DNA of 64,000 bases from Lingula anatina (lineage: Eukaryota > Animalia > Brachiopoda): NCBI GenBank assembly GCA_051362555.1, contig CM120645.1, forward strand, positions 19,778,001-19,842,000. The letters run 5' to 3'. The translations under genes were made by a program, and so were the position numbers. Positions within the stretch are counted from its first letter, which is position 1, and every line of letters begins with the position of its first letter. Shown here in pieces: positions 51,996 through 55,000 of the stretch. Under the pieces are notes generated by a model. It was not told where the DNA came from, ran no database searches, and saw only the letters and a program-made list of their open reading frames with translations.

Positions 51996-52082
51996 CTAAA
52001 GAATTAGACATCCTCTCTTTTTCTTCTGCTGAGTCTTTTGTGGGTTTTTCTTGTTAATTTGCCTCACGAGATCATAGAATAT
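51996..52082 (-). CDS. RAP1: Rap1 alternative last coding exon 6B (polybasic, CAAX CLIL)
   Basis: ttttacag [28 protein letters not shown] gtagac. Confidence 0.9.
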   Translation of the reverse strand: MFYDLVRQINKKNPQKTQQKKKRGCLIL

Positions 52083-55000
52083 CTGTAAAATAAACCAGCA
52101 TGGCAAAGTTATGGATCTACACAAACTACTGATGCGGTTATGGGTCCCATGTGTTTATAGGAATGTTTAGACGTGCTGGTTAGGACCAAGTGTGAACCAA
52201 AGGGAAAATCTCTCTCAATCTTCACACCTCAGCTATTAATTTTGAAGCACCCAAAACTGTGGTCTTTGTTTAAAATCCACAGACTGCATTCCATGCTATG
52301 CATCTAATCATTTCGTGAATTTTTCCATAATTATGTTCTACTCCGGTTCGCAGTCAGTTCACACCGCTTTGTCTAAACATTCCTTCATGTGCGTACCTAA
52401 AGGAGAAGACAACAGCACTTGCTCTTTTCCTTGCCCTGCATTCTATGAGGACTTTTCTTGTTAATCTGGCGAACTAAGTCATAGAATATCTGAAATAATG
52501 CAGCAAAGTTGAAACTTTTACCAGTATTATGTCCAGTGCAAATATGAATCAGCTGAAAGAAGTTCAGAGTGTGTAAAAAATAATATAAGGTTTTATACAA
52601 TGATACCCCACCATCACTAAACCCCCACCCCCACCTCTCCTCAGGACACATACACATGACAAAAATTACTGTGAAAAAAATTAGTAAATTTGAAGTCAAG
52701 ACAATAAAATTTTATTTATTTAAAGTCACTGGACATTGTTTCTGCACTGGGCTATATCAACTTCAAAACTGGAATTTCTGAAATGAGGAAACACTGTGAA
52801 GAAAAAAATCAAGAAGTGAAACAATCAAGAATATATGACATGTTATCATGCTGGGTCAAGTCATTGAAAATAATTACTGAAAAATTTTGAAAAGGGTAAA
52901 TGCGATGCTAACTTTACAGATTAAGTTTTCAAAATAACAAGTATGGACCGCATAGTCATTTGGAACAATTAGGAAATTCAAGAACTTAATGGCTGGTCGA
53001 ACATACTGAAAGTTATCAAAAGTAAAAAGTCAGACACAAACAAACAAACACACTTGCAAAATCTCTCTCTTTTTCTCTCAAACACACACACACAGAGATT
53101 TGCTCTAGAATATTTTGGGACTTACTTCATTAACATTAATTTTTGACTTTGCTGAGGTCTCTAGGAAGGCGCAGTTCCAAGCTCTTGCCAAATTCTGTCC
53201 TTGGTCTTTGCCCACAACTCTCTCGTCTTCCAAGTCACACTTGTTACCCACCAGGATCATGGGAACCTTGGAGAATATAAATAAATATTTGATAATTTAT
53301 TAACCTATTAATTTTTGAGTTATCATTCTATTTATCTATTCTGGTTTAGAGTGAAAAGAAATATTAACCAAATTTGTCATCCCTATCTTCTTCATCCCCA
53401 TTCCCAGTGTGTTGAGATTGTGATGGGTCACAACTAACACAATTTGAAATCCAAGGCCCAGTACAAAGCCTTGTGATGACTTTGTGCTGTCTGACCCCTA
53501 ATGACAATCTAAGTGGTTCATTTTGATTAAAAGAGATACTAGCTATTAGTTTAAAAATCAAATAAGAAAAAATATACAAACACATAGTGTCAATGTTCTC
53601 CTTATCTTTCGCATTATTTCCATCTATCTGGCTTAAAAACCCCGATTCACCTAATAATTCCACTAAAAGACTAAAAGAAATCATAACATCAAGTAAGCCC
53701 AAAGGCCACTTTAATCTTCCTTTTTCTTTTAACTTTGAAGATATTTTCCAAATATGCCCCCCCCCCCCTCCCCAACAAAAAATCGGGGTTAAAAAGAGAG
53801 AAGAACTTCACAACAATCATCTTACATCTTCCGTATCCTTCACTCTGAGGATCTGTTCTCTCAGGTCCTGGAGGTCATTAAAGGTGGACTGGGCTGTGAT
53901 GGAATATACCAGGAGAAACCCTTGGCCATTCTTCATGTACAGGTCACGCATGGCTGTAAATTGTTCCTTTAAAAAAAAATAATAATAATGAGGCATTCAA
54001 TTACCTGATTATATCTATTTCAAATACATTTCTGCTGTATCTTGTTGCTGATGTCCAACTTATCTGATAAAACCTTTAATATATAAACAAGACTGTAAGA
54101 AACAAACTTTTCGTAGCATAGTTTACATTTTTTTTTCTTTTTTATCAAAAAGATAATGCAATTAATTCAAAATTATCATCACACAGACAGGTGACAACAT
54201 AGACTTATGGTGGTACTCACAGTGCCGGCTGTATCCAAGATCTCTAGCATACACTGGTTGCCATCTACTTCTACTTGCTGGAAGAGGGGGAAAAAAGAGA
54301 AGGGTTTGATCAAAATATCTTTAATTTATCCCCCCCACACACACACAAATAATTTGCCTGAAGTATCTGAACACGCAGACACAGACAAAAGTAATACTGA
54401 CAGTGCTCTAAAAAAAGTAATACAATCTCTAGAGCCAATACCATATCAATATTTAAGATTAGACAGTAAATCTTGCACACATACACATACTTAAACAGAA
54501 AATAGTTTTTAGCCAATCATACTAGTTTTCAAAACTAACCTGTCTTTTCACCAAACAAAGTTTACTAGCAAATTTCAAATAAAACTGTGGAACAAATATT
54601 CAAAAATACATGCAAACAACACAAATAACTTTCCAAAAAAAAAAAAAAAAAATCCCAAAGCTCTTTTCAAACTCATAATTATATTTTACCCAACAAAATC
54701 TCTCAGTGAATCTTTAGCAAAACAAAAATAGTGTTTGGTATTTATGGGGTGGAACAAATGCTTAAAGCAACAGCCGCAAAATTGAGAGACAAAGGCAATC
54801 AGAATAGCTTTAGACACTACCAGAGCCTGTATCTAATAAAATGACATAAAATATTGACTTATTCAGCAACAGTGAACAATTAGAGAAACATGCTAACAAA
54901 GTGATAATGTAATATAATAATTTGATGTGCACTTTCAATATCACAGCTACATTCTCATCAATATTTTTGCAGTCCTTGTGAGGGCAATTTCTATATAAAC

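Follow-up and report, generated by a model that had tools for sequence, protein, structure and literature searches.

CAAX proteins carry a second membrane signal, which is either a polybasic patch or palmitoylated cysteines upstream of the box; Rap2, for example, is palmitoylated. The tail pairs known so far, those of KRAS and Cdc42, come from chordates, and it has long been asked why KRAS has retained two tails. In the window, i.e., the whole 64,000-nt stretch of DNA from the brachiopod Lingula anatina analyzed here, a sequence-only reading had recognized two duplicated last coding exons of Rap1, here called 6A and 6B, and had proposed that one gene thereby makes a polybasic and a potentially palmitoylated isoform. 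This leads to the questions of whether both exons are used and maintained, whether their tails might switch the membrane anchor, and how the pair compares with those of other GTPases.

Two last coding exons in one Rap1 gene

On the minus strand of the window, the Rap1 gene comprises five constant coding exons and the two candidate last coding exons (Table 1), with open frames of 185 aa with 6A and 183 aa with 6B. The sole named Lingula Rap1 record that was found, P0007 (XP_013396125.1; 134 aa), carries the minor tail 6A and, beginning with a methionine inside exon 3, lacks exons 1 and 2, which matters for annotation; RNA reads support the exon 1-2-3 junctions that this record omits. Membership in the Rap1 subfamily is indicated by the Pfam Ras match of P0007 (E=1.6e-40), a protein that exon 5 matches with 100% identity along 47 aa, and by the named matches of exon 5, which are Rap1, RAP1A, RAP1B and O-Krev. 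Read depth across the shared 3'-UTR exon is continuous, without internal joints among the junctions listed. The convergent neighbor on the plus strand (~25900-47700), possibly ATRX/RAD54L2-like, shows a weak SNF2-related match (E=3.8e-05, under the curated cut-off); one of its exons is acidic, and the last is long and rich in Ser/Pro. Elsewhere in the window, a 38-bp perfect inverted repeat at ~32343-32656 is likely a small transposon.

Table 1. Features of the Rap1 locus, given as positions in the window.
Feature	Position	Strand	Remarks
Rap1 coding exon 1 (coding part)	57379..57435	-	ATG at 57435; loose read ends at 55584 fit its 3' end
Rap1 coding exon 2	55515..55583	-	junction 54277/55515 in 4/4 runs of one set
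Rap1 coding exon 3	54221..54277	-	RNA reads and sequence
Rap1 coding exon 4	53826..53966	-	RNA reads and sequence
Rap1 coding exon 5	53126..53266	-	donor picks 6A or 6B; junction reads
Exon 6A	52397..52489	-	minor, cysteine-rich tail ending KSKCC-CLLL, then stop; GT donor directly after stop
Exon 6B	51996..52082	-	major, polybasic tail ending KKKRG-CLIL, then stop; GT donor directly after stop
14-bp stem, 5' arm	52371..52384	-	starts 13 nt after 6A donor
14-bp stem, 3' arm	52159..52172	-	ends 77 nt before 6B acceptor
Shared 3'-UTR exon	49448..51284	-	acceptor placed exactly at 51284; 3' end only roughly, at ~49450, from depth bins

The use of both exons was followed in eight of the nine RNA-seq runs found by species label (X6 left out), which belong to three studies (P1-P3) and of which ~6-30% of each run's reads were analyzed. 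Each of the two predicted junctions, 53126->52489 and 53126->52082, is seen in RNA reads: exon 5 is joined to 6B in 1456 reads (8/8 runs) and to 6A in 89 reads (7/8 runs), so that 6A accounts for 89/1545, or ~6%, of the pooled exon-5 junction reads. Downstream, 6A is joined to the UTR exon in 82 reads and 6B in 1540 reads, each in 8/8 runs. Both donors read TAG/GT and are spliced to the common 3'-UTR exon acceptor at 51284. The exons are therefore duplicated last coding exons, as had been claimed, but not terminal ones: 6A and 6B are stop-containing internal cassettes, and neither has its own 3' UTR as in alternative terminal exons of the Cdc42 type. The paths exon 5-6A-UTR and exon 5-6B-UTR instead show the mutual replacement that characterizes tandem duplicated exon substitution.

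Two phase-0 exons 314 nt apart with good acceptors had been described, and the coordinates as well as the pyrimidine tract and CAG that precede each exon (6A, 93 nt including the stop; 6B, 87 nt) bear this out; the tail-exon motif occurs in these two copies only within the 64-kb window. Purifying selection on both exons, likewise claimed, finds support on two sides. Firstly, seven bases in five of the 12 opening codons differ between 6A and 6B without a single amino-acid change, while random placement of seven substitutions left the protein unchanged in 0/200,000 trials. Secondly, the RNA-seq runs diverge from the window by a few percent, and among the best 40 of 45 variant rows of one run set (the other five being the least supported), exon 5 has seven variant sites, all synonymous, and 6A and 6B together have none. 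This amounts to 7/47 variant codons in exon 5 vs 0/58 in 6A and 6B (p=0.003), at a 6A depth of ~2-24 reads. Unlike the tail exons, the neighboring intron and UTR vary at many sites, and 13 sites differ across ~92 nt of the intron after 6A in run X5. Divergent samples under the one species label retain both exons, and those of P3, which are more divergent, splice both isoforms. Both 6A and 6B are thus constrained and look selected. The absence of even synonymous variants makes an additional, splicing-regulatory constraint at the RNA level possible. That one Rap1 gene yields two selected tail isoforms can be taken as nearly certain.

Tail chemistry and the proposed anchor switch

As predicted from the sequence, both tails end in a Leu-type CAAX box, CLLL in 6A and CLIL in 6B. 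The box of 6A is the same as that of human RAP1A, which ends in CLLL and is geranylgeranylated (PMC12155061, excerpts). The residues upstream of the box differ: 6A has two cysteines at positions -1 and -2 and retains three lysines near its end, and 6B has no upstream cysteine. Over the 10 residues before the CAAX box, net charge is +2 in 6A and +5 in 6B. The locus therefore shows the combination known from KRAS4A/4B, i.e., a CAAX box on both tails, a polybasic tail without an extra cysteine and a tail with upstream cysteine. Of the proposed pair of a polybasic and a potentially palmitoylated isoform, the two tails are borne out by the junction reads, but a full charge switch is not, as 6A keeps +2. 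Because some charge is kept, the tail switch would be only partial, and 6A and 6B may behave more alike than KRAS4A and KRAS4B.

The proposed mechanism begins with the splicing of exon 5 to either 6A or 6B, which gives identical GTPase domains with different tails. From established CAAX biology, both tails would be geranylgeranylated. In the 6B isoform, the lysine/arginine patch would then act as the second membrane signal, as in RAP1A and KRAS4B, and in the 6A isoform one or both of the cysteines just upstream of the prenylated one would receive a reversible palmitate. Weaker charge together with palmitate would favor a cycle from Golgi and endosomes to the plasma membrane. The likely outcome would be a main isoform held at the membrane by charge and a minor one with reversible acylation.

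Several known proteins make this mechanism plausible. The targeting of RhoB requires palmitoylation at C189/C192, palmitoylation plus a basic patch has been linked to endosomes, and RhoGDI binding of RhoA is abolished when a palmitoylatable cysteine is placed beside its CAAX box (PMC2193662, excerpts). In Candida Rsr1, a Rap1 homologue, altering the cysteine beside the CAAX box shifts the protein from the plasma membrane to endomembranes, the palmitoylation site being putative according to the authors (PMC7554666, excerpts). The cysteines of 6A thus occupy positions at which RhoB is known to be palmitoylated and at which palmitoylation of Candida Rsr1 is implied (PMC2193662, PMC7554666, excerpts of both). 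By this analogy, a palmitoylation-based difference in the localization of the two isoforms is somewhat favored.

Alternatively, both isoforms might be real, but 6A could act through its charge and phosphorylation sites on chaperone binding or kinase control, and not through the lipid anchor. The Rap1 tail is a target of kinases. The lower net charge of 6A would be in line with such a role, as would two serines that are missing from 6B, one in a Ser-Pro that replaces Asn-Pro after the helix and one near the CAAX box. However, what distinguishes 6A most is the gain of the two cysteines at -1 and -2, a rare feature among Rap1 tails (upstream cysteines occur in 6/179 distinct CAAX-ended tails fetched, 6A among them), and these cysteines are positioned as in RhoB and Rsr1. 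A role of the 6A tail apart from the lipid anchor is therefore unlikely, if still the strongest competitor of the anchor switch.

Choice between 6A and 6B

The share of 6A differs strongly between samples. Counted as exon 5-6A over exon 5-6B reads, the runs of study P1 give 5/410 (X1), 9/341 (X2) and 3/361 (X3), those of P2 0/44 (X4) and 15/56 (X5), and those of P3 21/105 (X7), 17/74 (X8) and 19/65 (X9). Run X4, without exon 5-6A reads, yet has four reads leaving 6A. Expressed as a share, 6A makes up ~1-3% in P1, 16-23% in P3 and, in P2, 0-7% of one run and 15-21% of the other, i.e., a ~twenty-fold variation between samples (about 1% to about 20%) with significant heterogeneity among runs (chi-square p=1e-33). 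X4 and X5, which belong to one study, differ in 6A share as well (p=0.0004). The runs X7-X9, in which 6A is high, were taken from a population of greater divergence, so that part of this variation may be genetic. The choice between 6A and 6B would probably be regulated by tissue or condition, a more tentative part of the proposal.

Exclusion of one exon by the other is not strict. A 6A-6B junction occurs in 15 reads (3/4 runs of one set), compared to 36 6A-UTR reads in the same set; it has no row in the other run set, which was analyzed at a higher share threshold. Skipping of both exons together does not appear among the listed junctions. The double form encodes the 6A protein, with its stop 87 nt upstream of the last junction. 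In mammals, a stop in such a position invites mRNA decay under the 50-55-nt rule, and by this rule the 6A+6B form is possibly open to decay. The donors of 6A and 6B (gtacgc, gtagac) deviate more from consensus than do the five constant donors (gtaag in four cases, gtgag in one). Double inclusion might be limited by weak donors, possibly by an intronic stem, and possibly by decay of the double form.

Between 6A and 6B, the 314-nt intron contains the putative stem: a perfect 14-bp inverted repeat, within 40 nt at 70% complementarity, spans most of its length and would loop out ~200 nt. Intron folding is more stable than expected (z=-2.3; 0/100 shuffles as stable), a stem of 14 bp was reached by 0/600 shuffles, and pair probabilities are 0.82-1.0. 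Stems of at least 14 bp occur in 7/203 equal window tiles including this one, some of them of low complexity. Steric exclusion by the stem is questionable, as 6A-6B splicing occurs and branch-point-like sites are located at -27 and -56; excerpts of PMC8042237 contained nothing useful on steric exclusion. That the stem hinders 6A-to-6B splicing is therefore a tentative proposal that has more against it than for it. A separate predicted hairpin over the 6A acceptor was no stronger than shuffles (z=0.10) and was rejected.

These splicing data bear on the possibility that 6A is a redundant spare tail, or mainly a regulator at the level of splicing, whereby decay of the 6A+6B form tunes the dose of Rap1. 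The small contribution of 6A (89/1545 reads), the 15 6A-6B reads with the position of the stop in the double form, and the missing synonymous variants, which suggest RNA-level constraint, would all fit such a role. On the other hand, 6A-UTR reads (36) exceed 6A-6B reads (15), and the 6A-UTR form has its stop at the junction. Moreover, the 12 residues that are held through synonymous drift, and the intact CAAX box, would be unneeded in a pure decay exon, which makes a spare or purely regulatory 6A improbable. Finally, the view that the reads and the second exon stem from a paralogue or an assembly artefact, which could appeal to reads differing from the window by a few percent and to a paralogue check limited to the 64-kb window, is largely refuted by junction reads whose shorter side spans up to 73 nt, canonical ends flanking 6A, the agreement of three studies, and the independent annotation XP_013396125.1, which joins exon 5 to 6A.

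Origin of the pair and related designs

6A and 6B are homologous in tandem, with 73% identity over 74 nt and an end-to-end DNA alignment that includes a common CTTTAG/GTA and a single 6-nt gap at the Cys-Cys (TGC TGT TGT vs TGT). A GT directly after the stop was otherwise found only in L049 among the genomic loci inspected for it. The end-to-end alignment and the common stop-overlapping donor point to a local duplication together with the splice sites, which would make the exons sister copies from one locus. In a tail tree (28 rows, 29 columns), 6B joins the tails of Owenia and Lineus (support 96/94), and 6A forms a long, unplaced branch. As 173 of the 179 Rap1 tails have no cysteine upstream of the CAAX box and 6B groups with Owenia and Lineus, 6B represents the ancestral kind of tail and 6A a derived kind. 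Presumably, an ancestral last exon was duplicated in tandem with its splice sites, after which 6A would have gained the 6-nt Cys-Cys insertion and lost basic residues. The age of this event is less clear: 6A and 6B were grouped in 0% of bootstrap trees, but a forced Lingula pair was not rejected (p-AU 0.315), nor were all copepod-like tails as one group (0.214) or 6A with the copepod-like non-TP tails (0.106), and the DNA identity of 6A and 6B (0.69) is no higher than that to single exons of other loci (0.55-0.70). The duplication can thus not be dated from these data.

Other lophotrochozoan genomes had been suggested as a means of dating the duplication. Two tails were seen in none of the other spiralians checked. 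Among 22 genomic loci searched by tblastn, a second full exon copy was present in 0 of 14 exon-bearing ones; many of these loci nearly duplicate one another, several resemble fungal or insect sequence, and the flanking stretches are short. Annotated isoforms of Lineus (4), Octopus and eight decapod or stomatopod species have one tail per species (15/26 and 15/24 members of the two largest crustacean clusters being among those listed), and tail searches of other species found no 6A-like tail outside P0007. In Lineus, the isoforms P0146-P0148 and P0268 share their tail and vary instead where exons 4 and 5 meet (a 7-residue insert) and where exons 1 and 2 meet (one residue). L063:2424-2700 contains a near-identical ~140-nt tandem repeat; as it covers only the 3' part of the Rap1 last exon plus UTR, L063 was ruled out as a second tail exon. 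Two copies of the exon motif occur in 1/80 loci fetched (L043).

This locus belongs to the copepod-like sequences, labeled so for the KIGV and IFFDLV motifs in common with Tigriopus. In Tigriopus californicus, two models share 170 identical aa before they diverge into different homologous tails, of which that of P0321 is polybasic and that of P0322 is not closely like it and has no extra cysteine. The copepod-like transcripts L039 (TP-type tail) and L031 (tail with one upstream cysteine) encode identical G-domains; they share 570 identical nucleotides, followed by 23 silent differences, and have no common 3' UTR, and may possibly be paralogues or a mixed assembly. In L043:512-728, a cysteine-rich tail with its stop is separated from a second, less basic tail copy downstream by 20 nt, the last of which form an acceptor-like tract with GG in place of AG. 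The second acceptor has apparently been lost, which would leave both tail copies in tandem in one transcript; P0316 is a single record with both L043 tails, and five upstream cysteines are present in P0273. Overall, Tigriopus and copepod-like Rap1 show two classes of last-exon tails, with 0 to 5 upstream cysteines in the non-TP class. Both Tigriopus tails start with IFF and both Lingula tails with IFY, which favors separate duplications, while the tree does not decide. The broader scenario, in which the last exon of Rap1 was duplicated independently in a brachiopod and in copepods, with one copy remaining polybasic and the other acquiring cysteines to give a KRAS-type two-tail switch with a palmitoylated pool under splicing control, and in which the brachiopod stem helps to separate the exons, is conceivable but doubtful.

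The closest parallel among known systems is KRAS4A/4B of vertebrates: one Ras-family gene has two homologous last coding exons for the G-domain end plus the hypervariable region; of these, the upstream copy bears extra cysteine(s), the downstream copy is polybasic, and one isoform dominates (PMC9882654, PMC8373072, excerpts of both). In contrast to KRAS, the Lingula gene belongs to the Rap1 subfamily, is predicted to be geranylgeranylated instead of farnesylated, and has a separate common 3'-UTR exon after both copies. Furthermore, KRAS4A was reported to derive from NRAS exon 4 (PMC9882654, excerpts), whereas the donors of 6A and 6B both overlap the stop and the two exons look like sister copies of local origin; palmitoylation of 6A is a prediction. 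Exons 6 and 7 of chordate Cdc42 similarly provide two homologous prenylated tails, one of them also palmitoylated, under tissue regulation (PMC4870516, excerpts), where palmitoylation in Lingula is again predicted. The supplement of PMC9741552 counts this exon pair among its tandem-duplicated exon events. However, Cdc42 has true alternative 3'-terminal exons, unlike the Lingula isoforms with their one 3' UTR. Nishimura and Linder are said to have found in 2013 that palmitate of brain Cdc42 sits on the CAAX box itself. It would thus lie within the box, whereas the 6A cysteines are upstream of it. A CCaX box is present in 35/179 distinct Rap1 tails, e.g., as CCLL in most decapods seen (P0122, P0131, P0136, P0137, P0241-P0265, and others), and by analogy with brain Cdc42 may be able to take two lipids.

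Within the Rap1 family, vertebrates vary the tail via two genes, RAP1A and RAP1B (PMC12155061, excerpts), but Lingula does so by splicing of one gene. Candida Rsr1 resembles 6A in the cysteine beside its CAAX box, which in Rsr1 is needed for plasma-membrane localization (PMC7554666, excerpts). More generally, tandem duplicated exon substitutions are considered to fine-tune proteins, with C-terminal swaps in 77/236 human events and convergence across animals (PMC9741552, excerpts), and the swap of the homologous exons 6A and 6B resembles this C-terminal class. RAP1 is absent from the main texts of the duplicated-exon surveys PMC9741552 and PMC8373072 and from one supplement file of PMC9741552, and the RAP1 passages in excerpts of PMC9714508 give no tail swap. 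In agreement with the impression that the arrangement was new for Rap1, no description of alternative last exons of Rap1 was found in the full-text literature, a search that covered few subscription papers and, among supplements, one short file of PMC9741552. The Lingula Rap1 pair would work like KRAS4A/4B and Cdc42, yet is neither, because the exons are not terminal and not strictly exclusive and because KRAS4A is reported to be NRAS-derived.

A third GTPase with such a design in an animal far from chordates, perhaps in copepods too, would mean that the swapping of polybasic and palmitoylated tails has been arrived at repeatedly and is not a chance product of vertebrates. Moreover, because the G-domain and the 3' UTR are common to both isoforms, the Lingula Rap1 isoforms represent a natural matched pair for tail-only effects on signaling.
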